Source: Candidatus Rokubacteria bacterium 13_1_40CM_69_27 (GTDB lineage Bacteria; Methylomirabilota; Methylomirabilia; Rokubacteriales; CSP1-6). From it: a stretch of 64,000 nt of DNA. The DNA lies in the NCBI GenBank assembly GCA_001917535.1, contig MNEF01000029.1, positions 13,815 to 77,814 of the forward strand, read 5' to 3'. Under the pieces are notes generated by a model, which searched no databases, was not told the origin of the DNA, and worked only from the letters and a program-made list of their open reading frames with translations. Shown here piece after piece: positions 20,868 to 35,723 of the stretch. The position numbers were made by a program, and so were the translations under genes. Within the stretch, counting starts at the first letter, position 1, and each line of letters begins with the position of its first letter.

Positions 20868-21500
20868 ATGACGTCGTTACAGCGTGGCTTCGCGCTCGTG
20901 GTCGCCCTGGTCCTGGCCGCGGTGGTCGGCCCGGCGCCCGCGGCCGCCGCCGGTCCGACCGACCAGCTGCGCGCCCAGATCGACAAGGTCGTGAAGACGC
21001 TCGAGGACCCCGCGTTCAACAAGGAAGGCCAGGCCAAGGAACGCCGGGTGGCGGTGCGCAAGATCGCGGAGGAGATCTTCGACTTCGGCGAGACCGCCAA
21101 GCGCTCGCTGGCGCGCCACTGGCTGGCGCGCACGCCGGCCGAGCGCGAGGAATTCGTCGCGCTGTTCGCCGATCTCCTGGAGCGCTCGTACATCTCGAAG
21201 GTCGAGCTGTTCAACGGCGAGCGGATCACCTACACCGGGGAGACCATCGACGGCGACCAGGCCGTCGTGAAGACCAAGATCATCACCAAGCAGGGGACCG
21301 AGATCCCCGTCGACTACCGCCTGCTGCGAAGGGGCGAGCGCTGGCTCGTCTACGACGTGATCATCGAGGGCGTGAGCCTGGTCGCCAACTACCGGACGCA
21401 GTTCAACAAGATCATCCAGACCTCGTCCTATCAGGAGCTGGTCAAGAAAATGAAGACCAAACAGGAAGAGTTCCTCGAGCAGGAGAAGAAGCGGACATGA
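20868..21500 (+). CDS. hpnM: MlaC/Ttg2D-family periplasmic lipid-binding protein (HpnM-like)
   Basis: Signal peptide MTSLQRGFALVVALVLAAVVGPAPAAAAG; ...KVVKTLEDPAFNKEGQAKERRVAVRKIAEEIFDF... Ttg2D fold. Confidence 0.7.
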   Translation: MTSLQRGFALVVALVLAAVVGPAPAAAAGPTDQLRAQIDKVVKTLEDPAFNKEGQAKERRVAVRKIAEEIFDFGETAKRSLARHWLARTPAEREEFVALFADLLERSYISKVELFNGERITYTGETIDGDQAVVKTKIITKQGTEIPVDYRLLRRGERWLVYDVIIEGVSLVANYRTQFNKIIQTSSYQELVKKMKTKQEEFLEQEKKRT

Positions 21501-23164
21501 GCAAGGCCCACGCGCTCCGCGAGCTGCTGGCCGGTCCCGGTCTGGTCCCCGCAGTGGGGGCCCACGACGCGCTCAGCGCGAAGCTGATCGAGGCCGCCGG
21601 GTTTCCCGTCGTCTGGTCGTCCAGCTTCACCGTCTCCGCCGCCCAGCGGGCCATGCCCGACGTCAACCTCCTGACGATGACCGAGACGCTGGAGGCGGCG
21701 CGGCACATCGACAACGCCGTGAGGCTCCCCGTGATCGCCGACTGCGACAACGGCTACGGCAACGCCGTGAACGTCGTGCGGACGGTGGAGGAGTACGAGC
21801 GGGCGGGCATCGCCGGCATCTGCATCGAGGACAACCTCTTTCCGAAGAAATGCAGCCTCTATCCGGGGATGCGGCGCGAGCTGGCGTCGATCGAGGAGCA
21901 CGCCGGCAAGATCCGCGCGGCCAAGAAGGCCCAGCGGGATGCGGCGACGGTCATCATCGCCCGCACCGAGGCGCTGATCGCCGGCTGGGGGATGAAGGAG
22001 GCGCTGCGGCGCGCCCAGGCCTACGCCGAGGCGGGGGCCGACATGATCCTCATGCACTCGAAGGCGCCGACCGCGGCCGAGGTGCTGGAGTTCATGCGAC
22101 TCTGGGAGCGGCCCACGCCCATCGTGGTGGTGCCCACCCTCTACCCGTCGGTGACCTTCGAGGAGCTGGAGGCGGCGGGCGTCAAGCTCGTCATCTGGGC
22201 GAACCAGGTGCTGCGGGGCGCCGTGAAGGGCATGCAGGAGACGCTGGCGACGCTCGGGCGGGCCCGCCGCCTCGACGCCCTGGCCCCCCACATCGTCGCG
22301 CTGGAGGAGATCTACCGTTACGTCGGCGTGGACGAGTTCAAGCGGATCGAGACGGAGTTCCTGCCGCGGGGCGCCTCGGACGTGCGGGCCGTCATCATCG
22401 CGGCGGGCTCGGGCAAGTCGCTCCTGCCGCTGACCGAGGACCGGCCCCAGTGCATGCTCGACATCAAGGGGCGGACGGTGCTGGAGCGGCAGCTCGAGAC
22501 GCTGCGCGCCGGCGGTATCCAGGAGATCGCGGTGGTCCGCGGCTACCGCAAGGAGACCGTGGTGGCCCCGGGGGTGCGCTTCTACGACAACGACGCCTTC
22601 GACGAGAGCGGCGAGCTCGCCTCGCTCTTCGCGGCCGAGCCCGAGCTGCACGGCCGCGTCCTCTTCCTCTACTCGGACATCCTGTTCGAGCGCGCGGTGC
22701 TGGACAAGGTGCTCCGCGCCGAAGGGGACGTCGTCATCGCCGTGGACCGCGCCTGGGTGGACCAGCGGGACCGCCTGCTGCCGCTGGCCAAGCCCGTGGA
22801 TCTGGTGGTCACCTCCGACCCGCCCCGGCCCGGCCGCCGCTCGCTCGGCGAGGACTGGCGTGACGAGCTGGTGCTGATCGGCCAGCGCATCGCCCCGGAG
22901 GCGGCCACCGGCGAGTTCATCGGGCTGGCGGCCCTTTCGCCGCGGGGCGTGGAGCTCGCGCGCGAGAGCCACGCCCACGCTGTGGCCGCGGGCGCCGCAC
23001 CCTTTCACGAGGCGGCCAGCGTCCGGTACGCCGCCTTCACGGACCTGCTGCAGACGCTGGTGGCGGCCGGCCACCCCGTCACCTGCGTGAGCACGTGGAA
23101 GGGCTGGCTCGAGATCGACACGTTCGAAGACTACCAGCGCGCCTGGGCCGAGATCAGGTCGTAG
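21497..23164 (+). CDS. Phosphoenolpyruvate mutase fused to C-terminal nucleotidyltransferase domain
   Basis: N-term ~290 aa: ...LLTMTETLEAARHIDNAVRLPVIADCDNGYGN...GICIEDNLFPKKCS (PEP mutase/ICL family with the EDK(x)5NS-type motif); C-term ~250 aa: AVIIAAGSGKSLLPL...KGRTVLERQLETL (NTP_transferase fold). Confidence 0.85.
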   Translation: MSKAHALRELLAGPGLVPAVGAHDALSAKLIEAAGFPVVWSSSFTVSAAQRAMPDVNLLTMTETLEAARHIDNAVRLPVIADCDNGYGNAVNVVRTVEEYERAGIAGICIEDNLFPKKCSLYPGMRRELASIEEHAGKIRAAKKAQRDAATVIIARTEALIAGWGMKEALRRAQAYAEAGADMILMHSKAPTAAEVLEFMRLWERPTPIVVVPTLYPSVTFEELEAAGVKLVIWANQVLRGAVKGMQETLATLGRARRLDALAPHIVALEEIYRYVGVDEFKRIETEFLPRGASDVRAVIIAAGSGKSLLPLTEDRPQCMLDIKGRTVLERQLETLRAGGIQEIAVVRGYRKETVVAPGVRFYDNDAFDESGELASLFAAEPELHGRVLFLYSDILFERAVLDKVLRAEGDVVIAVDRAWVDQRDRLLPLAKPVDLVVTSDPPRPGRRSLGEDWRDELVLIGQRIAPEAATGEFIGLAALSPRGVELARESHAHAVAAGAAPFHEAASVRYAAFTDLLQTLVAAGHPVTCVSTWKGWLEIDTFEDYQRAWAEIRS

Positions 23165-24324
23165 TGAGCGGACGCGACTTCGCCGCCCTGCTGGAGCGCC
23201 GGGGGTTCGACTTCTTCGCGGGCGTACCCTGCTCGCTGATCGAAGACCTGATCGCGAACCTCGAGAGCCATCCGCGCCTACCCTACATCGACGCCGTCCG
23301 GGAAGACGTGGCGGTGGGCCTGGCCGGGGGCGCCTGGCTGGCCGGCCGGCGCCCCGCGGTCCTCATGCAGAACTCAGGGCTCGGCACGAGCCTGAACGCG
23401 CTCGCCTCCTTCTCCTTGATGTACGGCCTGCCGGCGCTGCTGCTCGTCACCTGGCGCGGCTTCGGCGGCAAGGACGCGCCCGAGCACATCCTCATGGGCG
23501 AGATCTCCCCGGGCCTGCTGGACCTGCTGGGCATCCCCTACCACGTGCTGGCCGGCGACTCGCTCGAGGCGGGCGTCGCCTGGGCGCGGGAGGAGATGGA
23601 CGCCCGCATGAGCCCGGTGGCGCTGCTCATCCCGCCCGGCATATTTTACTCGGAGGGGGCCTCGACGGCCCCCTCCGAAGCCTCCCCCAGGATTGCGCCG
23701 GCAAAGCCGGCGCTCGAACCGCGGCCGCGCCACCGCGCGGAAGGCGCACCGTTGGTGGCGAGGATTTCCCGGATGCAGGCGATCACGGCGGCGGTCAAGC
23801 AGCTGGGTGACGAGCCGGCCATCCACGCCAACGGCTACCCGTCGCGCGAGTCCTGCGCGGTCGCCGACCGCCCGCAGAACTTCTACATGATCGGCTCCAT
23901 GGGCCTGGCTTCGGCCATCGGCCTGGGCGTGGCGCTCGGCCGACCCCAACGGCGCACGATCATCTTCGACGGCGACGGGAACCTCCTGATGAACCTCGGC
24001 GTGATCACCAACGTCGCCGCGCTGGCTCCGCGCAACTTCATCCACTGCGTCTTCGACAACGAGGCCTACGGCTCGACCGGCAACCAGCGGTCGGCGTCGG
24101 CGCACGTCCGGCTCGATCGGGTGGCCGCGGCGGCCGGCTACCGGACGGTGGCGGCGGTGACCGAGGCCGACGAGGTCGCCGCGGCGCTCCGGACGATGCT
24201 CGCCTCGGACGGTCCCCACTTCCTCCTCGCGAAGGTGACGCGCGAGCAGGCGAAGGTCCCGCGGATCCCCCACACCCCCCCGGCGATCCGCGACCGCTTT
24301 CGCGCCAGCATGCTGGGACCGTGA
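23164..24324 (+). CDS. Phosphonopyruvate decarboxylase (ThDP-dependent), carrying an in-frame repeat insertion
   Basis: VSGRDFAALLERRGFDFFAGVPCSLIEDLIANL... (pyrimidine-binding half) and ...GSMGLASAIGLGVALG...IIFDGDGNLLMNLG (ThDP-binding GDG motif); TAGTG overlap with PEP mutase stop. Confidence 0.8.
   Translation: MSGRDFAALLERRGFDFFAGVPCSLIEDLIANLESHPRLPYIDAVREDVAVGLAGGAWLAGRRPAVLMQNSGLGTSLNALASFSLMYGLPALLLVTWRGFGGKDAPEHILMGEISPGLLDLLGIPYHVLAGDSLEAGVAWAREEMDARMSPVALLIPPGIFYSEGASTAPSEASPRIAPAKPALEPRPRHRAEGAPLVARISRMQAITAAVKQLGDEPAIHANGYPSRESCAVADRPQNFYMIGSMGLASAIGLGVALGRPQRRTIIFDGDGNLLMNLGVITNVAALAPRNFIHCVFDNEAYGSTGNQRSASAHVRLDRVAAAAGYRTVAAVTEADEVAAALRTMLASDGPHFLLAKVTREQAKVPRIPHTPPAIRDRFRASMLGP
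23649..23745. repeat. REP/MITE-like element copy C, inserted in frame inside the phosphonopyruvate decarboxylase CDS
   Basis: tcggagggggcctcgacggccccctccgaagcctcccccaggattgcgccggcaaagccggcgctcgaa matches the intergenic copies; encodes the interdomain stretch EGASTAPSEASPRIAPAKPALEPRPRH. Confidence 0.55.
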
Positions 24325-25061
24325 AGGCCATCATCCTCGCCGCCGGCGTGGCCCGCCGCCTCGCGCCGCTCACCGACCGGACGCACAAGTGCCTGCTGCC
24401 CGTGGGCGACCGGCCGCTGCTCACCCGGATGCTGGCCGCCCTGGAGGCCGTCGGCGTCGCCGAAGCGCTGCTCGTCGTCGGTCACTGCGCGGACCAGGTC
24501 CGCGCGGTGGCGGGCGCGCGCTTCGGCCGGATGAGGGTTCGCTACATCGACAACCCGGAGTACACCAGGGGCTCGGTGCTGTCGCTCTACGCCGCGCGCG
24601 AGCACCTCGCCGAGCCCGCCCTGGTGATGGACGCCGACGTCCTCTTTTCCCGCGAGCTCCTGCGTCGCCTGCTGGCGGCGCCGCCCCCCAGCGCCTTCCT
24701 CCTCGATCGCGGGTTCCAGGATACGGGCGAGGAGGTGAAGTACTACACGCGGGGCGATCGGGTGATCGCGCTCGGCAAGAAGGTCGTGCCCGAGTCCTGG
24801 GAGCTCGCGGGGGAGGGTGTCGGCTTCTTCAAGTGTGGCGCCGAAGCCGGCCCCGAGCTGGTCCGCCTGCTCGAGCGCGTCATCGCCGCGGGCAACGGCC
24901 TCAACGAGTACGAAGACGCCCTGCACCTCCTGGTCACGCGGCGTCACGTCGGGTGGGTCGACATCACCGGCCTGCCCTGGACCGAGATCGACTTCGCCGA
25001 GGACCTGCGCCGCGCGCGGGACGAGGTGCTGCCGCACGTCGTCCGGCTCGACGGCGCGTGA
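24321..25061 (+). CDS. Nucleotidyltransferase, LicC/cytidylyltransferase-like (candidate phosphonate cytidylyltransferase)
   Basis: VKAIILAAGVARRLAPLTDRTHKCLLPVGDRPLLTRMLAAL...: GxGxRL-like motif; GTGA overlap with ppd stop. Confidence 0.7.
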   Translation: MKAIILAAGVARRLAPLTDRTHKCLLPVGDRPLLTRMLAALEAVGVAEALLVVGHCADQVRAVAGARFGRMRVRYIDNPEYTRGSVLSLYAAREHLAEPALVMDADVLFSRELLRRLLAAPPPSAFLLDRGFQDTGEEVKYYTRGDRVIALGKKVVPESWELAGEGVGFFKCGAEAGPELVRLLERVIAAGNGLNEYEDALHLLVTRRHVGWVDITGLPWTEIDFAEDLRRARDEVLPHVVRLDGA

Positions 25062-26224
25062 TCACCGAGGCCGCGCTCTATCTCGCGAGCCCCGAGGACG
25101 CGAGCAGGGCGCGTTCAGCGGTGGCCGGCCGGCCGGTCGCCTTCCGGATGCTGATGGCGGCGATCCGCGCGGGGTGCCGGCGGGTGTACGTTCCGGACAT
25201 CTTCCGGGGCAGCGACGTCGAGCGCGCCATCGCGGCGGCCGCCTCCGCGCGGGCCGCCACCGTCTGGCTCGATCACGACGCGAAACCGCCGGAGGGGCCG
25301 ATCCTGCTCCTACCCGCCGCCGCCCTCGTCCCGCCCTCCGCGCTGGCCGCGCTGCTGGCCGCGCCTCCCCTCGCGCTCCTGGCCGCCTCCCGCGACAGCG
25401 ACGCGCCCGTGGTGGCCGCCGGCGCGGCCCTGGCCGCGGCGCTCTGGACGTCGATCGCGGCGGGTCAGCCGCTGGGAGATGCGTTGGAGCGCGCCCTCAA
25501 GGGCACCGAGGTCACGGTGATTCCGGGCGCCGGATGGTACGTGCGGTCGGTGTCGCCCGCGGCCGGGAAGGAGGCGGAGGTGCAGATCTACGCCGGCCTG
25601 GCCAGCGCCATCGACACCTGGCTCGACACGGTCTTTCATCGGCGCTTGTCACTTCCGCTGAGCCGGGCGGCGGTAGCGGGGGGCCTGACGCCCAACCAGG
25701 TCACCCTGGCGAGCCTGCTGGTGGGCCTGGGGGCGGTCTGGTGTTTCTGGCAGGCGACGCCGGCTCGCGCGATCGTCGGGCTGCTGCTCTACGCGGCGGC
25801 CGTCGTCCTCGACCACGCCGACGGTGAGGTCGCGCGGCTCACCCTCACCGAGTCACCGCTGGGCGCGTGGCTCGACGTGGCGGTGGACACCGCGATCCAC
25901 GCGCTGCTCGTCGTGGCTATGGGCATGACGGCCCAACAGGTCGGGGGCGACGGCGCCGCGCTGGCCGGGGTGGTGGCGGCGATCGGCGTCGTGGCGAGCG
26001 CGACGCTGACGCAGACCTCGCCGCCGGCCCGAGGCGGCGGGATCGGCCTGCTGCTCGACGCACTGAGCAACCGGGACGGGTTCTACGCGATGCTGGTCAT
26101 CTTCATCCTGGGGCTCGCGCTCCGGCCAGGCGCGCTCCCCGCGCTCATGATCTTCCTGGCGGTCGGCTGTCACGCCTTCTGGTTGAGCCGGTTGGCCTGG
26201 CGCCCGTTCCTGCGCACTAAGTGA
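25058..26224 (+). CDS. Bifunctional-type protein: degenerate nucleotidyltransferase-like N-domain + CDP-alcohol phosphotransferase membrane domain (IPCT/DIPPS- or BEPIS-like)
   Basis: C-terminal half with ...LDHADGEVARLTLTESPLGAWLDVAVDTAIH (CDP-OH_P_transf D-G-x2-A-R...D-x3-D motif) and 5-6 TM segments; N-terminal ~190 aa soluble; GTGA overlap. Confidence 0.65.
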   Translation: MITEAALYLASPEDASRARSAVAGRPVAFRMLMAAIRAGCRRVYVPDIFRGSDVERAIAAAASARAATVWLDHDAKPPEGPILLLPAAALVPPSALAALLAAPPLALLAASRDSDAPVVAAGAALAAALWTSIAAGQPLGDALERALKGTEVTVIPGAGWYVRSVSPAAGKEAEVQIYAGLASAIDTWLDTVFHRRLSLPLSRAAVAGGLTPNQVTLASLLVGLGAVWCFWQATPARAIVGLLLYAAAVVLDHADGEVARLTLTESPLGAWLDVAVDTAIHALLVVAMGMTAQQVGGDGAALAGVVAAIGVVASATLTQTSPPARGGGIGLLLDALSNRDGFYAMLVIFILGLALRPGALPALMIFLAVGCHAFWLSRLAWRPFLRTK

Positions 26225-26355: not shown

Positions 26356-27051
26356 ATGTCGGCGAACAGCTGCGGACTTACTGGAGCTGTGCTGTTCGAT
26401 TTCGGCGGCACGCTGGATGCCGACGGTCTACCCTGGAAAGAGCGCGTGGCCCGGCTCTTTAGGCAGGAGGGCCTCGTCGTTACGGTTGAGCGGTTCGATC
26501 CCCTCTTCTACGCGGCGGACGACGCGCTCGTCGGTGCGGTGCCGCCCACCCTGCCGCTTCGGGAAACGGTGTTTCGGCTCGTAGCCGGTCTGGCCCGCAG
26601 CCTCGGGCTGCGTGACGACACCATGGTCGATCGCGTCACGACACGATTCGTCGAGCATGCGGTAGAGAACCTGCGGGGCAATCGGCCCCTGCTCTGGGAG
26701 CTCAGCCGCCGCTACCGTTTGGGCCTCGTCGCCAACTTCTACGGCAATCTCGCCGCGGTGTGTGCGGAGTGCGGAATCCGCGAGCTCTTCGGCGTCATCT
26801 TAGATTCGGCAGACGTGGGATGCGCGAAACCGGACCCCAAGATCTTTCGCATAGCGGCCGAGGCGCTGGGGCTAGCGCCCGCTCACGCCCTGTTCGTGGG
26901 CGACTCCCGGCCCCGCGACATGGCCGGCGCACGAGCGGCCGGCATGCCCCACGTCTGGTTGGTCGGCGAGACCTCTAGCGACGGGCAGCCCTGCTGTCCG
27001 GGCGACGCGGTGATCCGTTCGCTGAAGGACCTGGAAGAGCTGCTATTGTGA
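26356..27051 (+). CDS. HAD-superfamily hydrolase (phosphatase-like)
   Basis: GAVLFDFGGTLD (motif I DxG), ...LGLVANF..., ...FVGDSRPRDMAGARAAG (motif IV). Confidence 0.65.
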   Translation: MSANSCGLTGAVLFDFGGTLDADGLPWKERVARLFRQEGLVVTVERFDPLFYAADDALVGAVPPTLPLRETVFRLVAGLARSLGLRDDTMVDRVTTRFVEHAVENLRGNRPLLWELSRRYRLGLVANFYGNLAAVCAECGIRELFGVILDSADVGCAKPDPKIFRIAAEALGLAPAHALFVGDSRPRDMAGARAAGMPHVWLVGETSSDGQPCCPGDAVIRSLKDLEELLL

Positions 27052-27758
27052 CGCGTGAGCCGACGCTTCGAGGAGGCATCATCGCGGCGGGCAAGGGTCG
27101 CCGGTTGCGCCAGGGGGGCTGGACGATGCCCAAGCCTCTGGTTCCCATCGCCGGTGTGCCCTTGATCGAGTCGGTGATTCGGAACTTCAGCGCCGCGGGC
27201 ATCACCTCCCTCGTCATCATCGTGAACGAGCAAGGACGCGACTGCTTGGAGCACGTGCGCCGGCGCTTCCCCGACCTGGACCTGGACTTCATCGTGAAGA
27301 CTACCGCGTCGTCCCTCGAGAGTTTCGGCGAGGTGGCGACGCGTCTGGGTCGTGGCCGCGCATTGATTTCGACGGTCGACGCCTGGTGCCGGGAAGCCGA
27401 CTTCGTGCACTTCGTGGAGGCGGCGCGACAGCGCCCGGTTCAGGCGACGGTCCTCGCGGTGACGCCGTTGGTGTCGGATGAAGACCCGCTGTGGGTGAGG
27501 CTTGACGACGACGGCCGTGTCAGCGATCTCGGGGGCCGCTCGGGCGAGATGGTCACCGCTGGGATCTATCTGGTCTCCGAGCGTGTGCGGACGATGGTCC
27601 CGCCGTCCGAGCTGGCGCGGCTGCGGGACTTCTTGACCTGGCTCCACTCCCGGGGAGAGGTGCTCTGCGGCGAAGTCATCCAAACGGTCGTCGATGTCGA
27701 CGAGGCCGAAGACGTGGCCCTCGCCGAAGCGCTGGTGGGCGCCGGCAAGAACCCGTGA
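27048..27758 (+). CDS. Nucleotidyltransferase (sugar/alcohol-phosphate NTP-transferase fold)
   Basis: VTREPTLRGGIIAAGKGRRLRQGGWTMPKPLVPIAGVPLIESVIRNF...; GTG start overlaps HAD stop. Confidence 0.65.
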   Translation: MTREPTLRGGIIAAGKGRRLRQGGWTMPKPLVPIAGVPLIESVIRNFSAAGITSLVIIVNEQGRDCLEHVRRRFPDLDLDFIVKTTASSLESFGEVATRLGRGRALISTVDAWCREADFVHFVEAARQRPVQATVLAVTPLVSDEDPLWVRLDDDGRVSDLGGRSGEMVTAGIYLVSERVRTMVPPSELARLRDFLTWLHSRGEVLCGEVIQTVVDVDEAEDVALAEALVGAGKNP

Positions 27759-27777
27759 GTCCTTCGGGAGGTGTCGC

Positions 27778-28614
27778 GTGAGCCGAGCATGTTGGGGCAT
27801 TTTTCGAGAACGGGCGCATTCGCCCGGTCGGGAGAGCGACGACACCGAAATCCTCCGTCTGACGGGAAAGCACCTCGAGGCGAATGGGTACGAGGTGATC
27901 TTGAAGGCGCCGGAGGAGGTGAACGGCGCCACCGACGGCCGCCCGCGCTTTGCGTTCCTGATGTGTGAAGGTCTCGCCGTGCTGGGCCAACTCCGGGCCT
28001 GGGAGGCCGACGGGGTGCGGCAGGTGAACAGCCCCCTGGCGGTCCTGAACACGTATCGGGAGCGGATGATCGCGCAGCTCAAGGAGGCGAACGTTCCGTT
28101 CATCCAGAGCCGTATCGTTTCGACCGCCGAGCCCTACCGTGGCGCGGCTCCGCCCGTATGGGTCAAGCGAGCCGATGTTCACTACACCCAGGAGGGCGAT
28201 GTGGTCTTCGCGCCCAGCGAGGGTGTGCTCGGCGAGTCGCTCCGGGGGCTGGCCGAGCGCGGGATTCCCCGCGCGGTGATCCAGGCGCACGTCGAGGGCG
28301 ACCTCATCAAGTTCTACGGGATCGGCAGCGGAGGCGGAGCCGACGGCGGGCCACAGTGGTTTCGGTGGCTCTATCACAAGGACCAGACGGTGGCCGGCCA
28401 CCCGTTCGACCCGGTGCGATTGGCCCGGCTCGTGCGGAGAGCGGCCGGAGCCCTGAGCCTCGAAGTCTACGGGGGCGACGCAATCGCCACCGCAGCCGGT
28501 GACCTCGTGTTGCTCGACCTCAACGCCTGGCCCAGCTTCGCCCTGTATCGGGAGGAGGCGGCCGCCCGCATCGCCGCCTACCTCGCCCTTCGCTTCCGGG
28601 AAGAGGCGCTGTGA
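27778..28614 (+). CDS. ATP-grasp-fold protein (putative carboxylate-amine/alcohol ligase); start uncertain
   Basis: ...ILRLTGKHLEANGYEVILKAPEEVNG...WVKRADVHYTQEGDVVFAPSEG...VIQAHVEGDLIKFYGIGSGG...; RimK/GshB-like topology; first in-frame start after upstream stop is GTG 27778. Confidence 0.5.
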   Translation: MSRACWGIFRERAHSPGRESDDTEILRLTGKHLEANGYEVILKAPEEVNGATDGRPRFAFLMCEGLAVLGQLRAWEADGVRQVNSPLAVLNTYRERMIAQLKEANVPFIQSRIVSTAEPYRGAAPPVWVKRADVHYTQEGDVVFAPSEGVLGESLRGLAERGIPRAVIQAHVEGDLIKFYGIGSGGGADGGPQWFRWLYHKDQTVAGHPFDPVRLARLVRRAAGALSLEVYGGDAIATAAGDLVLLDLNAWPSFALYREEAAARIAAYLALRFREEAL

Positions 28615-29939
28615 CCGCGCGGCGTCCGGTCGGTCCCCGGTCTCAACGGATCGTCGCCCAGGAAGCGCGGCGGATCGCCCCCGGTTTGCAGTCGTACGCC
28701 CTTTACTCGGGTCTGGCCATGGCGCGGGGAAGCGGCTGCACGCTCGTCGACGAGGACGGGAACGAGTACATCGACTTCATCGCGGGGATCGGAGTGGGCA
28801 GCGTCGGCCACTGCCATCCGCACTACGTGGAGGCGCTCAAACGGCAGGTCGAGCGATTGACCTTCGGTAGCTTCACCACCGAGGGGCGGGCGCGCTTTCT
28901 CGAACTGCTGGCCACCGTCACCCCGCCGGGATTGACGCGTATCCAGTTGTTCTCGGGAGGAGCCGAGGCGGTGGAGGCGGCCTTGCGGCTGGCGAAGGCG
29001 GCGACTCGGAAACACGAGGTCATCGGATTCTGGGGCGGGTTCCACGGGAAAACCGGCGGCGTACTGGGGCTGCTGGGGAGCGAGTTCAAGCACCATCTCG
29101 GACCCTTCGTGCCCGGCCAGTACCTGTCGCCGTATGCGGACTGCTATCGCTGCCCGCTCCGGCTCCGCTACCCGGAGTGCGGCATCGCCTGCGCCGAGTA
29201 CCTGCGCGACGTCATCCGCTATCAGACCAGCGGCGAGATCGCGGCGGTCATCGTCGAGTCTATCCAGGGGACGGCCGGCAACGTCGTCCCTCCGGAGGGG
29301 TTCCTCCGGGCCATCCAGACGATCGCCCGCGACCACGGCGCCCTGCTGATCGTCGACGAGATGCTGACCGGCTTCGGTCGAACCGGGTCCATGTGGGGCT
29401 GCGATCACGACGGGGTCGTCCCCGACGTCATGACGGTGGGCAAAGGCATCGGCGGGGGCTTCCCCATGAGTGGCGTGGTCTCCACGGACGAGCTCACCAG
29501 CCGCAAGCCGTGGTCCAACCCGAGCGCGAGCTCCTCGAGTTACGGTGGCAACCCGCTGGCCGCCGCCGCCGGGCTGGCGTCGCTCGAGATCATCCTGAAG
29601 GAGGACCTCGTCAAGAAGGCCGAGCGGGTGGGCACCGTGATGCTGGCGCGGCTGGAAGCACTGAAGGAGAAGTATCGGTGCGTCGGCGACGTGCGGGGCC
29701 GAGGCCTCATGCTGGGCATCGAGCTCGTGAAGGATCGCATGACGAGGGAGCCGCTGGCCAAGGAGGTGACGCAGGCTCTCTATCAGGAGTGTCTGCGGCG
29801 CGGCTTGGTGGCGATGTGCTATTCACCCTCCATTCGGATCAACCCGCCGCTCATCATCGGCGAGGACCGCGCCCTGGAAGGTCTCGCCATCCTCGACGAG
29901 GCCCTGGCGGCGGTCCTCCGGCAACACGGGCTCACGTAG
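28611..29939 (+). CDS. Class III (omega-type) PLP aminotransferase
   Basis: ...DFIAGIGVGSVGHCHPHYVEAL...LLIVDEMLTGFGRTGSMWGCDHDGVVPDVMTVGKGIGGGFP...: fold-type I class III signature with the Lys in TVGKG; GTGA overlap. Confidence 0.8.
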   Translation: MTARRPVGPRSQRIVAQEARRIAPGLQSYALYSGLAMARGSGCTLVDEDGNEYIDFIAGIGVGSVGHCHPHYVEALKRQVERLTFGSFTTEGRARFLELLATVTPPGLTRIQLFSGGAEAVEAALRLAKAATRKHEVIGFWGGFHGKTGGVLGLLGSEFKHHLGPFVPGQYLSPYADCYRCPLRLRYPECGIACAEYLRDVIRYQTSGEIAAVIVESIQGTAGNVVPPEGFLRAIQTIARDHGALLIVDEMLTGFGRTGSMWGCDHDGVVPDVMTVGKGIGGGFPMSGVVSTDELTSRKPWSNPSASSSSYGGNPLAAAAGLASLEIILKEDLVKKAERVGTVMLARLEALKEKYRCVGDVRGRGLMLGIELVKDRMTREPLAKEVTQALYQECLRRGLVAMCYSPSIRINPPLIIGEDRALEGLAILDEALAAVLRQHGLT

Positions 29940-29940
29940 G

Positions 29941-30999
29941 ATGCTGCGCGGAGCGATCGTCGGCCTCGGCAACGTCGCCGTTCACGCGCACCTTCCTGGC
30001 TGGCTCCAGCGTTCCGACGTCGAGATCGTCGCGGCCACCGATACGCTCCCGACGCGGCGCGCTGCCGCGGAGGCTCTTCTACCGGGCGCCCGCTGGCACG
30101 ACTCCGCCGCGGAGCTCATGGCGCGCGGAGATCTCGACTTCGTCGACATCTGCACCCCTCCCTCGAGCCACGCGGGGCTGATCCGGACCGCCCTCCAGCG
30201 CGGCCTCCACGTGCTGTGCGAGAAGCCGTTGGTCTGCTCGGTCGACGAACTGGCGGCGCTGGCGCGACTGGCGGCGGCCAGGGATCGGGTGCTCCACACC
30301 GTTCACAACTGGCACTACGCGCCGATCATCCAACGGACCTGGACGCTGCTCCGAGACGGGGCGATCGGCCAAGTCCGGCGGGTCGTCTGGCAGACCCTGC
30401 GGACGAAACCCGCTGACGGCGGCGACGAACGCAACGGGAACTGGCGCGTCAATCCGGACGTCGCCGGCGGCGGCATCCTCACCGACCACGGCTGGCACAT
30501 CTTCTACGTCCTGCAACGCTGGATCGGCCAGCGACCGACGTCGATCAGCGCCACGCTGGAAACGCGCCAGCACACCCAGTGGCCCGTCGAGGACACGGCG
30601 ACCCTTCGACTGACCTTCCCGGAGGCGACGGCGGAGGTCCTGCTTACCTGGGCATCCAATGTGAGGCGAACCTGGGCCGAGGTCACGGGCACCGAGGGCA
30701 CGATCCGGCTGGAAGACGGCACCCTCGTCCTGAAGCGCTCCGGCCGCGAACGCCTGGAGCGGCGGTGGACGTGCCGACCAGGGCTGTCGGAGGGATCGCA
30801 TCATCCCGACTGGTTCCACACAGCCGCGGACCATTTCCTGGCCGCGGTCAACGGCTTGAGTCCGCGGACCGCGAATCTCGCCGAGGCGTCGCTCTGCGTC
30901 ACGCTAGAGGCGCTGGCTCGGGAATCGAATCACCGAGGGCAAGCGCTGTCACTGTCCCCACTCTCTGTTCCCCTCCCCGGGCCGGAGTCATCCCTCTGA
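29941..30999 (+). CDS. Gfo/Idh/MocA-family NAD(P)-dependent oxidoreductase
   Basis: MLRGAIVGLGNVAVHAHLPGWLQRSDVEIVAATD...HVLCEKPL...: Rossmann N-domain + Gfo C-domain. Confidence 0.8.
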   Translation: MLRGAIVGLGNVAVHAHLPGWLQRSDVEIVAATDTLPTRRAAAEALLPGARWHDSAAELMARGDLDFVDICTPPSSHAGLIRTALQRGLHVLCEKPLVCSVDELAALARLAAARDRVLHTVHNWHYAPIIQRTWTLLRDGAIGQVRRVVWQTLRTKPADGGDERNGNWRVNPDVAGGGILTDHGWHIFYVLQRWIGQRPTSISATLETRQHTQWPVEDTATLRLTFPEATAEVLLTWASNVRRTWAEVTGTEGTIRLEDGTLVLKRSGRERLERRWTCRPGLSEGSHHPDWFHTAADHFLAAVNGLSPRTANLAEASLCVTLEALARESNHRGQALSLSPLSVPLPGPESSL

Positions 31000-31037
31000 A
31001 CACGGAGACCGCTGGCTCCATCCAGTCCGGGGAGGAC

Positions 31038-32186
31038 GTGGTGGTCGTCCTCCCGTCCCGGACGGAGGAGGTTCCCCCGAGCACGCGGCTCGCCGGGCTT
31101 CCGTTGCTCCGTCGGATCGTGCTGGCGGCCGGGCGCGCGGGGTTCGGACGAGTTCTGGTGGGGTGCCTGCGGAGCGAAGACCAGCCGCTGCTCGCCGGCA
31201 CCTGCGCCGGGGCGCTGCGCCCGAACGGGCCGACGTCGCTGTCGGCCCGGCGCATCGTGCTTCTGCCCATGAACGTCGTGCCGCAGCCGAGCTGGTTGCG
31301 ACAGCTTCGGGAGATCGAGCTCGAGCCCGACCGGCTGTACGTAGACCAGGCGTCGGTGGCGGTCGTGGAGGCGACGGACCCGGCGCGGGTGGTCGCCGTG
31401 GCCGCTCGGTGTGGCAGCGCGGCCGACGTCGTCGCGACCTTGCGGGGCACCTTCAAGGCCGCAGACCGGGCCTTCGATGAGAAGGGGCGATTCCCGCTGG
31501 CGTCGCTCCGCGACATCCCGGCCGCCGAGACCTGGCTCCTGCGGAGCCTGATCAAGCAGCACGAAGGGTTCATGTCACGCCACCTGGAGCGACGAATCTC
31601 CCTGGCCCTGACCCGCAGGCTGGTCACCACGCGAATCACGCCGAATGCGATGACCGTGGTGAGCGTCGCCATCGGGCTTGTCGGCGCGCCCTTCTTCCTG
31701 TCTTCCGCCCCCGCCTACCAGTTGGCGGGGGCGCTCCTCTTCTTGACCCATTCGATCGTCGACGGGTGCGACGGAGAGATCGCCCGATTGAAGTTCCTGG
31801 AGTCGGCGGCCGGCGCTGTCCTCGACTTCTGGGGCGACAACCTCGTGCACGCGGCGGTGTTCACCTGCCTGGCGGTCGGTTGGAGCCTCGATACCGGGAC
31901 CACCTGGCCGCCGCTGCTCGGCGGTATCGCGGTCGCGAGCACGCTGGGATCGGCCGCCGTCGTCTATGGGCGCGGCCTCCGGGCCTCCCACGCGAACGGT
32001 GAGACCTCACGGCTGTCGCGCCTCGCCGATGCGCTCTCTCACCGGGACTTCATCTATGTCATCCTCCTCCTGGCCGCAGCGGGAAAGGCCGCATGGTTCC
32101 TCGTCATTGCCGCGGCCGGGGCGCCGATCTACCTGCTCCTGCTCGCGTGGATCGGTCGAACGGATCGAGGTGCTGCGCCGTCGTGA
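31038..32186 (+). CDS. Second IPCT/DIPPS-like protein: nucleotidyltransferase-like N-domain + CDP-alcohol phosphotransferase (paralog of 25058..26224)
   Basis: ...VVVVLPSRTEEVPPSTRLAGLPLLRRIVLAAGRAGFGRVLVG... then ...FLTHSIVDGCDGEIARLKFLESAAGAVLDFWGDNLVH (DG..AR..D...D motif) and TM segments; exact start (GTG ~31038) uncertain. Confidence 0.6.
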   Translation: MVVVLPSRTEEVPPSTRLAGLPLLRRIVLAAGRAGFGRVLVGCLRSEDQPLLAGTCAGALRPNGPTSLSARRIVLLPMNVVPQPSWLRQLREIELEPDRLYVDQASVAVVEATDPARVVAVAARCGSAADVVATLRGTFKAADRAFDEKGRFPLASLRDIPAAETWLLRSLIKQHEGFMSRHLERRISLALTRRLVTTRITPNAMTVVSVAIGLVGAPFFLSSAPAYQLAGALLFLTHSIVDGCDGEIARLKFLESAAGAVLDFWGDNLVHAAVFTCLAVGWSLDTGTTWPPLLGGIAVASTLGSAAVVYGRGLRASHANGETSRLSRLADALSHRDFIYVILLLAAAGKAAWFLVIAAAGAPIYLLLLAWIGRTDRGAAPS

Positions 32187-32721
32187 CCGCGTTCCTCGAT
32201 GTCGTGCTCCACGGCGCCGGTCTGTCGAGTCAGGCCATCGCCGTCGGAGGTGTCCTCTTCGTCCTCCTGGTGCTTCGGCCAGCAGGCGTGACGGCGGCGG
32301 AGATCGCCCCGCTCGTCGGCCGATCCCTTACGCTCGTGGCCGGGTGCGCCGTCGGCGTGGCCATCGCCCAGTGCCTGAGCCTCGTGCTGCAGCTCGACGC
32401 CTTGGCGGGCGACGACGGCTCTTCGAGTGGATGGTGCGAACCGGGCGGCTTCGCTCTCGATGCTGCGCGCTCGTCTTCCCGCTCCTCTGCGCCGTCGGCA
32501 GTGGGCTCCTCCTCACGCATTCGCACGCCCTCGACAGCCTCAAGACGGAATTTCTCGTCGAGGTGACACACGCCCCGCTGGCGATCGTGGGGATGCTCGT
32601 CGGGTGGGCCCGGTGGCTCGAGCTCCGGCTGCCGCCTCCCGACGACCGCCTGCCCGGCCGGCTCTGGCCGGCGGGCCTTACGCTGGTCGGCCTGCTGCTG
32701 CTCCTCTACCGGGAGAGCTGA
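32183..32721 (+). pseudogene. Internally deleted, frameshifted paralog of the CopD-CtaG-like membrane protein at 48055..49629
   Basis: Frame A (ORF 32093..32566) VTAFLDVVLHGAGLSSQAIAVGGVLFVLLVLRPAG... matches N-terminus MAGFLDVLLRGLLLTCVSVAVGGIAWLRLVLRAEP; frame B (ORF 31966..32721) from ~32430 FEWMVRTGRLRSRCCALVFPLLCAVGSGLLLTHSHALDSLKTEFLVEVTHAPL...LLLLYRES matches C-terminus FEWMVRTGRLRPRPWSYVFPLLCAVGGGLLLTHSHAMFSLKDEFLTEVAHAPL...LLLFYRES. Confidence 0.55.
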
Positions 32722-32728
32722 GGTCGGG

Positions 32729-33721
32729 ATGCGCTCCATCCGTTTGGGGTTCCTCGCGCTGGGGGCGACGCTGCTCGTCGGCCTGATCGTCGAGAACGAC
32801 CCGGGAGCGATCCTGGCCTCCATGTCGCAGCTGTCCTGGCGGCTCCTCATCGTGCTCTGCTTCCCGATGCCGCTCGTCGCGCTCTTCGACACGCTTGGGT
32901 GGCGTTCCGCGTTCCCGCGGCACCGCGTCGCGTTCCGCACGCTGCTGTCGGTGCGGCTCGCCGGCGAAGCCTTCAACATCACCACTCCCACGGCCGCCCT
33001 GGGCGGCGAGGCCGTCAAGGCCTGGCTGCTGCGGGATCGCGTCCCGCTCGACGAGAGCCTGCCGTCCCTGATCGTGGCGAAGACGACGATCACGATCGCG
33101 CAGGGTGTCTTCCTCCTGCTCGGGGTCACGCTCGCTCACTGGACGTTGCCGCCGGATTCGCTGCTGCTCCGGGGCATGCAGGCGTTGCTGGTGGTGGAGG
33201 TCGTTGCCCTGACCGGATTCGTCCTCGCCCAGATGCGGGGCGTGCTCGGATGGGGCAGACGCCTGCTGAGCGGCTTCGGCTTCGGCTTGCCGCGGTTCTT
33301 CGAGGCCCGCGGCACGCTCGAGCGCGTCGACGACGGGCTGGCACGCTTCTACCGCCACGAGCGGGGGCGATTTATCGCGTCGATTCTCTGGCATCTCGTC
33401 GCCTGGCTGCTTGGTTCGGTCGAGACCTACCTGATCCTCCGCTTCATCGGTGTGGGCGTGTCGTTGACCACCGCCACCGTGATCGAAGCCTTCGGCGCCG
33501 CCGTCCGCGTCGCCACATTTTTGATCCCGGCCAGTCTGGGGGCCCTCGAGGGCGGCTTCGTCGCGACGTTCGTGGCCCTGGGGCTCGGGCCGACCGCCGG
33601 CGTCTCGTTCAGCCTGGTGCGGCGCGTGCGCGAGGCGACCTGGGCCGGAGTCGGACTCGTGGCGTTCGCGGCGCGCGCCCGGTCGCAGGCGCGTGGCCAC
33701 CGCCCGGCTTCCGCCCACTGA
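32729..33721 (+). CDS. Lysylphosphatidylglycerol-synthase-TM / UPF0104 'flippase-like' membrane protein (possibly HpnL-related)
   Basis: MRSIRLGFLALGATLLVGLIVENDPGAILASMSQLSWRLLIVLCFPMPLVALFDTLGWRSAF...: ~8 TM, conserved Arg/Glu pattern of LPG_synthase_TM domain. Confidence 0.6.
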   Translation: MRSIRLGFLALGATLLVGLIVENDPGAILASMSQLSWRLLIVLCFPMPLVALFDTLGWRSAFPRHRVAFRTLLSVRLAGEAFNITTPTAALGGEAVKAWLLRDRVPLDESLPSLIVAKTTITIAQGVFLLLGVTLAHWTLPPDSLLLRGMQALLVVEVVALTGFVLAQMRGVLGWGRRLLSGFGFGLPRFFEARGTLERVDDGLARFYRHERGRFIASILWHLVAWLLGSVETYLILRFIGVGVSLTTATVIEAFGAAVRVATFLIPASLGALEGGFVATFVALGLGPTAGVSFSLVRRVREATWAGVGLVAFAARARSQARGHRPASAH

Positions 33722-33754
33722 GGCTCTCCCGGCGGGGCCGGCGATCCTCCGAGA

Positions 33755-34502
33755 TCAGCGCGTGAGGGGGGAGGCGCGGCGGGCGGCGCCGCCAAAGACC
33801 GACCGGAAGCCGAAGTAGGCGATCGAGTCCTTCATGTTCGACACGAACCGCTTGAGCGGACTCATTCCCGGGTCCGTGACGTACTCGAGCGTGAGGCTCA
33901 CGCGCTCCTCGCCCTCGCCCAGCGGCGTGATCGTGTGCCACAGGTTGTCGCCGTTGAACAGCACGAGGGTGCCCGGCTCGGTGGCCAGCCGGATCTCCAG
34001 GGGCTCGCGCCGCGGGTCCTTGCGGTAGGGCTGGCAGACCAGGCGGCTCGACGACCGCTCGATGAGGCCTACCAGCACCGTGTAGCGGGCACCGTTGTAA
34101 TAAGACGTGTCGAAGTGGAAGCCGATATGATCGCCCGGCTCGGTGTAATAGTAGAGCGCGCACGCGTGCGGATCGGTGTCGGGACAGCACTGGAGCGGTC
34201 GTCCCGTCACCCGGCGCAGGAAGTCGATGAACGCGGGCGAGCGGTAGAGCGCCAGGATGGCCGGCGCTTCGGCCGCCAGCGTGAAGGAGCTCACGCTGCC
34301 GCCCTTCTTGTGCTTGGGGATGTAGTTGCGGTGAACGGCGGGCCGGACGCGCTCGACCTCGGCCACCAACGGCTCGATGACGGACGACGGCAGGCAGCGC
34401 TCGAGATAGACGAACTCGTTCTGCCGCCAGTACGCCGCCTGCACCGCCTCCACGTCGAGCGCGCGGATCACGCGCGCGATCTCCTCCTGCACCGGGTCCA
34501 TC
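33755..34502 (-). CDS. 2OG-Fe(II) oxygenase-superfamily protein (putative hydroxylase); start uncertain
   Basis: ...[24 protein letters not shown]...[11 protein letters not shown]...: H-x-D...H facial-triad spacing of 2OG-FeII_Oxy/PhyH-like enzymes. Confidence 0.5.
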
Positions 34503-34649
34503 AGGCGATCGAGCACTCGGCCCTCCGGGCGATCGTGTCGGCTCGCTGGCGACGCGCGGCCCCGCCCGCTATGGTACACTGGCCCGGTCCCGCTGACCGG
34601 GGGATCGTTCCCGCTCATCGCGCGTTCATATCGACGAAGGAGGCACCCC

Positions 34650-35723
34650 GTGGCATCGGTTCGAGTCGCCCTCATCGGCGTCGGCAACTGCGCGTCGGCC
34701 CTCGTCCAGGGCGCGCAATTCTACCGCACCACTCCCGAGGAAGGTTTCGTGCCCGGCCTGATGCACCCGCGGCTGGGCGAATATCATATCGGCGACATCG
34801 AGTTCTCGGCGGCCTTCGATATCGATGTCCGCAAAGTCGGCCGGGATCTTTCCGAGGCGATTTTCGAGGTTCCGAACAACACCGTGCGCTTCGCCCAGGT
34901 CCCGCCCCTGGGCGTGCCGGTGCACCGGGGCATGACCCATGACGGGTTGGGAACCTACCTCTCGCAGATGATTCGCAAGGCCCCCGGCTCGACGGCCGAC
35001 ATCGCGGGCATCTTGCGGGAGACGGGGACCCACGTCGTCGTCAACTTCCTCCCGGTCGGCAGCGAGATGGCGACGAAGTGGTACGTCGAGCAGGTCCTCG
35101 ACGCCGGCTGCGCCTTCGTCAACTGCATCCCCGTCTTCATCGCCCGGGAGGCCTACTGGCGCCGGCGCTTCGAGGAGCGCGGGCTCCCGGTCGTGGGCGA
35201 CGACGTCAAGTCCCAGGTGGGCGCCACCATCGTCCACCGGGCGCTGGCCCGGCTCTTTATGGATCGCGGCGTTCGCCTGGAGCGCACGAGCCAGCTCAAC
35301 GTCGGCGGCAACACCGACTTCTACAACATGCTCGAGCGCGAACGGCTGGTGTCGAAGAAGATCTCGAAGACCGACGCGGTGCGCTCCCAGCTCCGCCACG
35401 ACCTGCCGAGCGAGGCGATCCACATCGGACCCAGCGACTACGTGCCCTGGCTCGAGGACCGCAAGTGGGCGCACATCCGCCTGGAGGGCCGCAGCTTCGG
35501 CGATCAGCCGGTGACGGTGGAGCTGAAGCTCGAGGTCTGGGACTCGCCCAACTCGGCCGGCGTGGTGATCGACGCCATCCGCTGCGGCAAGATCGCGCTC
35601 GACCGCGGCCTCAAGGGCGCGCTCCTGGCGCCCTCCGCGTACCTCATGAAATCACCGCCGGAGCAGTGGGCCGACGACACGGCCCGCCAGCGTCTGGAGC
35701 GGTTCATCAGCGGCGAAGAGTAG
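34650..35723 (+). CDS. ino1: myo-inositol-1-phosphate synthase (bacterial/archaeal short type)
   Basis: [26 protein letters not shown]...[28 protein letters not shown]...: ~357 aa MIPS with Rossmann N-terminus and conserved SKxxSKT-like region. Confidence 0.85.

Follow-up and report, generated by a model that had tools for sequence, protein, structure and literature searches.

Hopanoids rank among the major membrane lipids of bacteria and serve as geological biomarkers. In a 64,000-nt stretch of DNA from Candidatus Rokubacteria bacterium 13_1_40CM_69_27 (contig MNEF01000029.1, positions 13,815 to 77,814; hereafter the window), the hopanoid genes hpnM and hpnN are separated by a gene island of about 14 kb (21497-35723; genes g1 to g14), which resembles several described systems in part. 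With the hopanoid tailoring genes hpnI/J/K/L/O it shares the site in a hpn locus, an HpnL-like membrane protein and a class-III aminotransferase (HpnO family). However, HpnI glycosyltransferase, HpnK deacetylase and HpnJ radical-SAM enzyme are absent, and the aminotransferase comes from an operon found mostly away from hpn loci. The chemistry suggested by the island is also of the phosphodiester/CDP-alcohol kind, which we know of in no bacteriohopanepolyol.

The membrane enzymes IPCT/DIPPS (A. fulgidus AF0263, PDB 4MND) and AF2299 (PDB 4O6M) combine a transferase domain of six transmembrane helices with a nucleotidyltransferase-like cytosolic domain and the signature DxxDGxxAR...GxxxDxxxD, and are associated with a cytidylyltransferase, a myo-inositol-1-phosphate synthase (MIPS) and a phosphatase. 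These features have counterparts in the island, but the active nucleotidyltransferase is here a separate gene, and the domain fused to the transferase g10 has neither the GxGxR loop nor a Pfam nucleotidyltransferase match. The NCBIfam model for IPCT/DIPPS (NF041135) scores 84 bits with g10 and 50 bits with the second transferase, g4, against a cut-off of 580 bits, with the match confined to the transferase half. The hosts are mesophilic, and the partners include flippase-like, CopD and lipid-transport proteins. BEPIS of Rhodothermus marinus, said to have been described by Jorge et al. in 2015, reportedly uses CDP-inositol as the head-group donor to an ether lipid alcohol. By analogy, an inositol phospholipid would arise independently of CDP-diacylglycerol from the joint action of MIPS, a CTP:inositol-1-phosphate cytidylyltransferase and a DIPPS-type transferase; the likeness is drawn at the level of described function, and the enzyme is here split into two genes.

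The Pnt pathway and clusters named ‘Group 1 / Burkholderiales_CDP-OH’ (PMC6697681, PMC8942020) contain, like the island, a phosphoenolpyruvate (PEP) mutase (Ppm)-like domain fused to PF12804, a phosphonopyruvate decarboxylase (Ppd)-like enzyme, a second nucleotidyltransferase, a CDP-alcohol phosphotransferase and a 2-oxoglutarate (2OG)/Fe oxygenase. ‘Group 1’ are predicted phosphonolipid clusters with an uncharacterised product (PMC8942020). The corresponding cassette of the island, module A, differs from them by the loop EDNxFPK[KR]CS in the mutase-like domain, the lack of a class-V 2-aminoethylphosphonate (AEP) transaminase, a BesD/HalD-like oxygenase, the site between hpnM and HpnN, and MIPS. 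The nearest prior remark concerns some Acetobacteraceae with PEP mutase (PepM) genes beside terpenoid genes, an ‘undiscovered terpene-phosphonate’ (PMC8776678), while inositol or phosphonate genes go unmentioned in a 2025 preprint on hopanoid-associated genes (PMC12324291). All component families of the island are known; what is new is their combination, the fixed place in a hopanoid operon, the variant mutase loop and a second, widespread cassette (module B).

Two conserved cassettes within one island

The island consists of two independently conserved cassettes and is not the single unit assumed in the sequence-only reading, an earlier annotation made from the DNA letters without database searches: g5-g12 (26.3-33.7 kb) form a separate operon inserted here. 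The bounds of the island given in that reading were exact, and all protein families it named are present according to Pfam and NCBIfam profile searches, gene frames set by third-position GC content (GC3) and, for the ATP-grasp enzyme, an AlphaFold2 (AF2) model compared by Foldseek. In place of its ‘at least 14 co-directional’ genes there are 12 that are intact and co-directional, plus one remnant and, on the opposite strand, the 2OG-Fe oxygenase gene g13.

Conservation was followed in two samples. For module B, 80 loci around g7 homologues were taken from species-representative genomes (from 266 hits; mainly Methylomirabilota, some Nitrospirota); for module A, 80 metagenome loci around g1 homologues, with 62 contigs carrying a g1 homologue at at least 65% identity. 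All loci were mapped by tblastn with the window proteins, and counts for module A are given only where the contig reaches far enough.

Module A has the order PepM-like/nucleotidyltransferase fusion (g1), Ppd-like protein (g2), nucleotidyltransferase (g3), CDP-alcohol phosphotransferase (g4), an LPG_synthase_TM gene or an oxygenase, and MIPS (g14). Around g1 homologues of 65-88% identity, hpnM lies directly upstream of the g1 homologue in 50/50 loci and MlaE upstream of the module in 30/30. The Ppd-like gene follows in 43 of 44 loci, and g3, g4, MIPS and HpnN are found in 39/39, 33/33, 23/23 and 18/18 loci, respectively. The order shc-MlaE-MlaF-MlaD-HpnM is kept in all relatives, and MIPS (81-89% identical in relatives) lies directly 5' of HpnN in the loci inspected. 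None of 18 module A relatives has module B at the window's position. The expectation that the insert travels with hpnM and hpnN is therefore borne out for module A but not for module B. Variants with g3-g4-LPG_synthase_TM-MIPS but without mutase or decarboxylase also occur (L027, L035, L042). Loci of more remote g1 homologues (50-63% identity) contain no neighbouring hpn genes (hpnM in 0/14) and retain the decarboxylase and the second nucleotidyltransferase, with an adjoining CDP-alcohol phosphotransferase gene at least in L159 and L161.

Module B encodes, in this order, a HAD phosphatase (g5, the first gene of the conserved operon), a nucleotidyltransferase (g6), an ATP-grasp enzyme (g7), a class-III aminotransferase (g8), a Gfo/Idh/MocA dehydrogenase (g9) and a CDP-alcohol phosphotransferase (g10), usually followed by a CopD protein of 500-520 aa and an LPG_synthase_TM protein. 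This operon of six to eight genes is found in 266 species-level genomes among those scanned and is complete in 54 of the 55 genome loci with enough flank. The proteins g7 and g8 keep 60-86% identity across the phylum, and a full-length CopD gene lies 3' of g10 in 44/80 genome loci. Most copies occupy unrelated sites, e.g., straight after ftsZ in locus L010. In the window, module B has been inserted between g4 and the oxygenase gene together with its own B-type LPG_synthase_TM gene (g12, 56-68% identical to the copies ending module B versus 43-54% to those inside module A), and its CopD gene decayed afterwards. With the L010 CopD as tblastn query, residues 1-85 are recovered in frame 2 at 32183-32419, and residues 425-523 in frame 1 at 32422-32718 with 74% identity, which amounts to an internal loss of about 340 aa together with a frameshift. 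A full-length CopD paralogue lies 16 kb downstream of the remnant (Table 1). The aminotransferase, previously placed in a phosphonate pathway, belongs to module B, as do the ATP-grasp, Gfo/Idh/MocA and HAD proteins and one nucleotidyltransferase.

Module B was also found, at 66-73% identity to the window, in seven loci (L017, L036, L059, L060, L064, L077, L084) whose records are titled Binatia, Nitrosotalea (an archaeon), Dormiibacterota, Verrucomicrobiia, Acidoferrum or Limnocylindria. These are most likely mis-binned Rokubacteria contigs.

The PEP-mutase-like protein and its partners

The first domain of g1 belongs to the PEP_mutase/ICL superfamily, with PepM as nearest characterised relative: the PDB matches are PepM 5UNC (280 bits), the hydrolase PPH 2DUA (228 bits), Mytilus PepM (226 bits) and the lyase MICL (126 bits). 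Its earlier naming as a PEP mutase is supported in so far as it is closest to PepM and PPH and not to the lyases. However, the TIGR02320 score (281.6 bits) falls under the equivalog cut-off of 319.55 bits, and the catalytic loop reads EDNLFPKKCS instead of the Ppm motif EDKX5NS (K116N and N122C in Mytilus numbering). Of the refuting outcome named in the sequence-only reading, an isocitrate-lyase-family enzyme without the phosphonate motif, one part thus applies.

This loop is shared by a whole clade. EDNxFPK[KR]CS is kept in all loop-covering g1 homologues down to 50% identity (82 sequences) and, in a library of 1.8 billion proteins, in 26 of the best 150 representatives, versus 84 with the canonical motif. 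A look-up of cluster members for ten EDN..CS representatives returned almost no taxonomy. Position 122, Asn in the mutase and Thr in the hydrolase, is generally held to separate these enzymes (PMC7916636), and the Cys found there in g1 occupies exactly the alignment column of the catalytic Cys in the lyase branch (cf. EDQVWPKRCGH in L083). The domain could accordingly form no C-P bond and act instead on another oxo-acid or PEP-like substrate, and module A would then be phosphonate-free. Such a function would fit the conserved loop and the score below cut-off, the NCBI name of one clade member (only ‘isocitrate lyase/PEP mutase family protein’), and the genomes in which a Ppd-like gene directly follows hpnM with no PepM-like gene adjacent (L029, L032 (Rokubacteria CSP1-6) and L057). 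We nevertheless find it somewhat unlikely, as PepM and PPH are far closer than the lyases and the Mg ligands and the equivalents of K120, S123, L124, R159 and H190 are retained in the alignment.

The surroundings of the domain also resemble those of true Ppm. PF12804 covers residues 298-418 of g1 (nucleotidyltransferase region 297-420), and the Ppm-PF12804 fusion is the commonest Ppm architecture, present in 33% of Ppm (PMC6697681). The adjoining g2 contains both TPP_enzyme_N and TPP_enzyme_C but scores below the TIGR03297 cut-off (Table 1), and a Ppd-like neighbour argues for phosphonopyruvate as an intermediate. Judged from these sequence features, C-P bond formation by g1 is plausible, and we lean towards it. 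Since the EDKX5NS loop is absent, the EDN..CS clade drops out of motif-filtered inventories (PMC6697681, PMC8942020).

CDP-alcohol phosphotransferases, nucleotidyltransferases and MIPS

The two transferases are not ordinary PgsA enzymes, in agreement with the sequence-only reading, but of the AF2299/DIPPS type with the full catalytic signature: DhaDGevARx10GawlDvavD from residue 252 in g4 (PF01066, 37 bits) and DgcDGeiARx10GavlDfwgD from residue 242 in g10 (PF01066, 40 bits). They are paralogues (30% identity over 180 aa of the membrane domain), and their best family matches are enzymes that use inositol-1-phosphate (DIPPS, AIP synthase and PIP synthase). By phmmer against PDB sequences, g4 best matches AF2299 (44 bits) and IPCT-DIPPS (38 bits), and g10 matches AF2299 (77 bits). 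The AF2 model of g10 (mean predicted local distance difference test, pLDDT, 87.2) has AF2299 as top Foldseek match (TM-scores 0.65/0.73, 23% identity, 378 columns), followed by IPCT-DIPPS and then PIPS. The IPCT/DIPPS architecture proposed for both proteins is thus recovered in the model of g10, which shows an N-terminal nucleotidyltransferase-like domain and six transmembrane helices in the AF2299 order; for g4 the likeness lies in sequence matches. The N-terminal domain of g10 resembles nucleotidyltransferases by fold (MurU, KdsB and IPCT 4JD0 in Foldseek) but appears degenerate and probably inactive. In g10, the conserved R336 corresponds in alignment to the RxxR motif for the acceptor phosphate in PIPS/DIPPS.

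Other proteins of this kind were seen outside the window. Solitary g10 paralogues (~60% identity) lie beside an FAD-dependent (DAO) oxidoreductase and an ORF of ~100 aa, away from both modules, in L007 and in the contig of P0091. In L005 (GCA_016184365), a radical-SAM gene and a third, divergent CDP-alcohol-phosphotransferase-type protein (399 aa, catalytic signature incomplete) are located 3' of module B (12178-14294), in a locus flanked by MMPL, MlaC, MlaA and a diacylglycerol-kinase-like gene.

In its N-terminal half, the IPCT/DIPPS model of NCBIfam aligns with the free-standing nucleotidyltransferase g3 over the full length (71 bits). Neither NCBIfam scores nor the PDB matches of g3 (LicC, 50 bits; IPCT 2XME, 36 bits; PntC 6PD1, 30 bits) discriminate IPCT from PntC, and the PDB matches of g3 and of the g1 nucleotidyltransferase domain (LicC, 41 bits; PntC 6PD1, 24 bits) do not discriminate a preference for AEP from one for phosphocholine or inositol phosphate. 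For g6 the sole PDB match is MurU 4Y7T, and a 236-aa start retains the loop AAGKGRRL. The MIPS g14 matches TIGR03450 over residues 4-353 with 503 bits; the cut-off of 638 bits is tuned to mycothiol-type enzymes, and similarity to bacterial INO1 extends over the full length.

Other enzymes of the modules

The protein g7 has no Pfam or NCBIfam match and is 70-81% identical across the phylum. Its AF2 model (pLDDT 85.8) gives 611 PDB matches at E<=1e-3 in Foldseek, the top ones all ATP-grasp enzymes. The matches include PsnB, RimK, Ddl and ArgX/LysX, and also ITPK1 (7TN7, TM-scores 0.67/0.70), so both ligases and an ITPK1-like kinase are represented. The aminotransferase g8 is the most conserved gene product of module B (75-86% identity), and its nearest PDB entries are GABA-AT-like. 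A primary role for it as AEP transaminase or as HpnO was rejected, its operon existing without PepM or hpn neighbours. The dehydrogenase g9 weakly matches inositol 2-dehydrogenase and scyllo-inositol dehydrogenase, and g12 scores 165 bits with the HpnL model TIGR03476 (cut-off 196).

The oxygenase g13 belongs to a BesD/HalD-like family. A PDB sequence search gave insignificant matches to BesD, HalB and HalD (E>=0.09). Across 14 homologues, H-x-D is conserved along with a distal His and an Arg, and the H-x-D motif suggests a hydroxylase-type enzyme. Its start codon is uncertain (34501 or 34618).

Association with hopanoid and transport genes

The hpn frame described in the sequence-only reading was confirmed with Pfam and NCBIfam: shc-MlaE-MlaF-MlaD-HpnM upstream, an HpnN-like exporter with MMPL and sterol-sensing domains downstream, and hpnD, hpnA, hpnG and hpnH divergent. 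The start/stop overlaps noted there are equally real (hpnM/g1, g1/g2, g2/g3, g3/g4, g5/g6 and g7/g8). The overlap with hpnM, together with the 1-nt gap between g14 and g15 (HpnN), suggests co-translation. Because hpnH and hpnG are present in the window, bacteriohopanetetrol (BHT) would be available as an alcohol. A membrane lipid is the likeliest carrier, given that LPG_synthase_TM/HpnL-like proteins occur in both modules and that the site lies within the shc-Mla-HpnM...HpnN operon.

Module B lies near hpn-type genes (shc, hpnM, HpnN-like) in 15 of the 80 loci, and in 11 of the 36 loci flanked on either side by at least 8 kb. The juxtaposition takes at least six arrangements: MIPS-HpnN-module B; HpnN(-)/module B/MIPS(-); shc-mla-hpnM-nucleotidyltransferase-LPG_synthase_TM-MIPS-module B-HpnN; the Methylomirabilis-type HpnN-like-hpnM-shc-HpnL-like-module B; divergent MMPL with MlaC and MlaA; and the present window, with module B within module A. 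This repeated rejoining of module B and hpn genes after rearrangement argues for functional coupling, although the link is statistical.

In L008, MlaE and MlaF are called as a single protein of 524 aa (1663-3237), and HpnN and the HAD phosphatase as one of 1144 aa (5813-9247). This may reflect a frameshift or an error of gene calling; should the HpnN-HAD fusion be real, it would physically join module B to the exporter.

Proposed function and alternatives

As is established for these enzyme families, phosph(on)o-alcohols are activated to CMP or CDP derivatives by PF12804/NTP-transferase enzymes, a substituted phosphate is moved onto an alcohol by class I CDP-alcohol phosphotransferases, and terminal phosphates are stripped by HAD enzymes. 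We tentatively prefer, at a little under an even chance, the explanation that the island serves lipid head-group synthesis coupled to hopanoid/lipid export. Both cassettes would make CMP/CDP-activated polar head groups around myo-inositol phosphate, and the products would be membrane lipids for MlaFED-HpnM and HpnN. Module A (g1-g4, g13, g14) has a constant place in the hopanoid operon of this lineage. MIPS (g14) would supply inositol-1-phosphate, a step for which the enzymology of the family is established and the support here is at the sequence level. This compound, or a phosphonate, may be activated with CTP by g3, and g4 would then form a phosphodiester, for which the analogy with BEPIS favours a lipid alcohol as partner. 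Candidates are the terminal hydroxyl of BHT and a glycerolipid. BHT is an attractive acceptor, a suggestion made by gene position, and within the lipid explanation we give hopanoid and glycerolipid acceptors roughly equal weight. It is doubtful whether g1 and g2 supply an activated C2 phosph(on)ate as a second unit; this would hold only if the variant mutase forms a C-P bond, and g13 may hydroxylate the unit. Such a step would parallel the predicted ‘Group 1’ clusters (PMC8942020).

Module B would be a pathway of its own, in which an amino-polyol may arise from a polyol or cyclitol, in the simplest case inositol, through the HAD, Gfo/Idh/MocA and class-III aminotransferase enzymes. It would be phosphorylated in the manner of ITPK1, or ligated to a carboxylate, by the ATP-grasp enzyme g7; g6 would activate it, and g10 would couple it to an alcohol that is either phosphorylated or a lipid. 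The product might be flipped by the LPG_synthase_TM protein.

A bolder version, which we think unlikely, is that Methylomirabilota (perhaps Nitrospirota) make composite hopanoids. These would be phospho-inositol bacteriohopanepolyols with amino-cyclitol or C-P decoration, installed by AF2299-type enzymes, flipped by HpnL-like proteins and exported by MlaFED-HpnM/HpnN. The EDNxFPK[KR]CS clade would in addition form C-P bonds by a different loop, or catalyse a new reaction.

Several observations weigh against the preferred explanation. Besides the altered loop of g1 and the decarboxylase genes lacking a neighbouring mutase, some genomes keep g3-g4 without the mutase, and typical module A loci, as far as inspected, encode no enzyme from phosphonoacetaldehyde to AEP or 2-hydroxyethylphosphonate (HEP) and no aminotransferase. 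AF2299 and DIPPS do not process lipids, and their six-helix form is tied to soluble acceptors, e.g., inositol phosphate (PMC4634129). About 70-80% of the module B copies are situated away from hpn genes. HpnL (165 vs 196 bits), HpnM (89 vs 160) and HpnN (590 vs 752) are each the best-scoring model yet under the NCBIfam cut-off, so that ‘hopanoid-specific’ transport is itself something we infer. In the literature searched we found no description of these cassettes, of a phosphodiester-linked hopanoid or of the EDN..CS clade.

Nucleotidyltransferase, transferase, HAD phosphatase and MIPS together are the enzyme set of the Archaeoglobus pathways for di-myo-inositol phosphate (DIP), glycero-phospho-inositol (GPI) and diglycerol phosphate (DGP). 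The modules may therefore make soluble polyol-phosphodiesters related to these, possibly aminated or phosphonylated, as compatible solutes or periplasmic substituents within a hopanoid stress co-regulon. The nucleotidyltransferase would make a CDP-alcohol, the AF2299/DIPPS-type enzyme would join it to inositol-1-phosphate and the HAD enzyme would remove the terminal phosphate. Such a scheme accords with the closeness of g4 and g10 to AF2299/IPCT-DIPPS in sequence, and of g10 also in fold, with the soluble acceptors of these enzymes and with the alignment of R336. It fits less well with the conserved presence, in the cassettes, of LPG_synthase_TM genes of the flippase type and of a CopD membrane protein of 500 aa, or with the invariable position of module A between two lipid-transport genes. 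The aminotransferase, dehydrogenase, ATP-grasp, mutase, decarboxylase and oxygenase would be superfluous for known solutes. DIP-type solutes are known from (hyper)thermophiles, whereas the hosts here are mesophilic soil and groundwater bacteria, and the DIPPS-type fold can, as reported for BEPIS, take a lipid acceptor. On balance we consider soluble products less likely than a lipid, but take them seriously as the main alternative.

It seems quite improbable that the modules make ordinary phospho(no)lipids, i.e., phosphatidylinositol and a ‘Group 1’-like AEP-type phosphonolipid, at a position that is merely inherited lineage gene order without special relation to hopanoids: the PepM-like/Ppd/nucleotidyltransferase/CDP-alcohol set of distant relatives without hpn genes, the module B copies elsewhere and the Mla and RND scores below the hopanoid-specific cut-offs would agree with this, but the reshuffled module B rejoins shc/hpnM/HpnN in several arrangements and at least two orders, the MIPS-HpnN adjacency persists while other genes vary, the close spacing to hpnM and HpnN suggests co-translation and the transferases differ in type from the lipid-donor enzymes PgsA/PIPS.

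Gene map and flanking genes

The GC content is ~70% across the entire window, and as such GC-rich sequence abounds in shadow ORFs, genes were fixed by GC3 and by gene calls on identical contigs. A product identical to g1 is encoded on contigs of two ENA soil assemblies, of JGI metagenome 3300002562 and of the metagenome-assembled genome GCA_036820235.1, and the nearest named homologues are from Candidatus Rokubacteria/Methylomirabilota. The + strand ORF 33935-34942 was rejected as a shadow ORF by GC3. Horizontal transfer of the island was also considered; given the uniform GC (~0.66-0.74) and phylum-internal homologues for all genes, there is no support for a foreign origin. A promoter and terminator scan of 20-39.5 kb found sites no more often than in shuffled sequences, and operon boundaries could not be set by it. 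The features are listed in Table 1.

Table 1. Genes and other features of the window, with the main basis of each assignment.
Feature	Position	Strand	Basis
Zinc-type alcohol dehydrogenase	9825-11132	-	
110-aa ORF between hpnG and hpnH	14614-14946	-	No family match
‘Carotenoid synthesis’ membrane protein between hpnH and shc	15982-16794	-	PF04240
shc	16712-18676	+	Pfam SQHop_cyclase
MlaE	18669-19463	+	Pfam MlaE
MlaF	19649-20404	+	Pfam ABC_tran
MlaD	20404-20844	+	NCBIfam MlaD 145.8 bits
HpnM/MlaC-like	20868-21500	+	Pfam MlaC; NCBIfam HpnM 88.7 bits, cut-off 160
g1, module A: PEP-mutase-like (residues 1-~290) + nucleotidyltransferase	21497-23164	+	PF13714 203 bits; PF12804 45 bits
g2, module A: phosphonopyruvate/sulfopyruvate-decarboxylase-like TPP enzyme	23164-24324	+	TIGR03297 301.5 bits, cut-off 312.5
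g3, module A: free-standing nucleotidyltransferase, LicC/IPCT-like	24321-25061	+	PF12804 66 bits
g4, module A: CDP-alcohol phosphotransferase, ~180-aa N-terminal cytosolic domain	25058-26224	+	PF01066
g5, module B: HAD-IA phosphatase	26356-27051	+	PF00702, PF13419, PF13242
g6, module B: sugar-1-phosphate/MurU-like nucleotidyltransferase	27048-27758	+	PF12804 44 bits
g7, module B: ATP-grasp-fold enzyme (ligase or kinase)	27778-28614	+	AF2 model, Foldseek
g8, module B: class-III (omega) aminotransferase	28611-29939	+	PF00202 344 bits
g9, module B: Gfo/Idh/MocA sugar/inositol-type dehydrogenase	29941-30999	+	PF01408, PF22725
g10, module B: AF2299-type CDP-alcohol phosphotransferase	31041-32186	+	PF01066; AF2 model, Foldseek
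Decayed module B CopD gene	32183-32721	+	tblastn, two frames
g12, module B type: LPG_synthase_TM/HpnL-like flippase-type membrane protein	32729-33721	+	PF03706 93 bits
g13, module A accessory: 2OG/Fe(II) oxygenase	33755-~34501	-	GC3 0.89; PF23169 HalD 35.5 bits
g14, module A: MIPS	34650-35723	+	PF01658 122 bits
g15, context: HpnN-like RND (HAE3) lipid exporter	35725-38481	+	TIGR03480 HpnN 590 bits, cut-off 752
BT1-family transporter and malate synthase, 3' of HpnN	41662-45726		
Full-length CopD paralogue, 524 aa	48055-49629	-	51% identity to L010 CopD

On the minus strand upstream, Pfam and NCBIfam place hpnD, hpnA, hpnG, the 110-aa ORF, hpnH and the PF04240 gene, the last of which is present in nearly all relatives whose contigs reach it. 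The zinc-type alcohol dehydrogenase ends the divergent hpnD-hpnA-hpnG-hpnH operon; reduction of phosphonoacetaldehyde by it is conceivable in principle. The BT1/malate synthase pair recurs 3' of the module B CopD in L008 (17678-20750), which suggests an ancestral neighbourhood that was later rearranged. Finally, L004 (ERZ27285562 k141_848704) is 99-100% identical to the window over mlaF-g3 and only 71-86% over hpnH-mlaE, due to either a strain recombination breakpoint or a chimeric assembly.

Implications

The known polar head groups of hopanoids are, to our knowledge, all derived from sugars, amino compounds or nucleosides, and none is a phosphodiester. A CDP-alcohol gene set fixed between hopanoid-transport genes predicts that an abundant, uncultured phylum of soil bacteria makes a novel class of lipids or else a lipid exported alongside hopanoids. 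As Ca. Methylomirabilis has module B beside shc and enrichment cultures exist, the prediction is open to experiment. Module B is also a widespread and highly conserved operon without an assigned function, present in 266 species-level genomes. Whatever its activity, the sizeable PepM-like/nucleotidyltransferase clade with Ppd-like partners is missed by the EDKX5NS filter, which affects estimates of environmental phosphonate potential.

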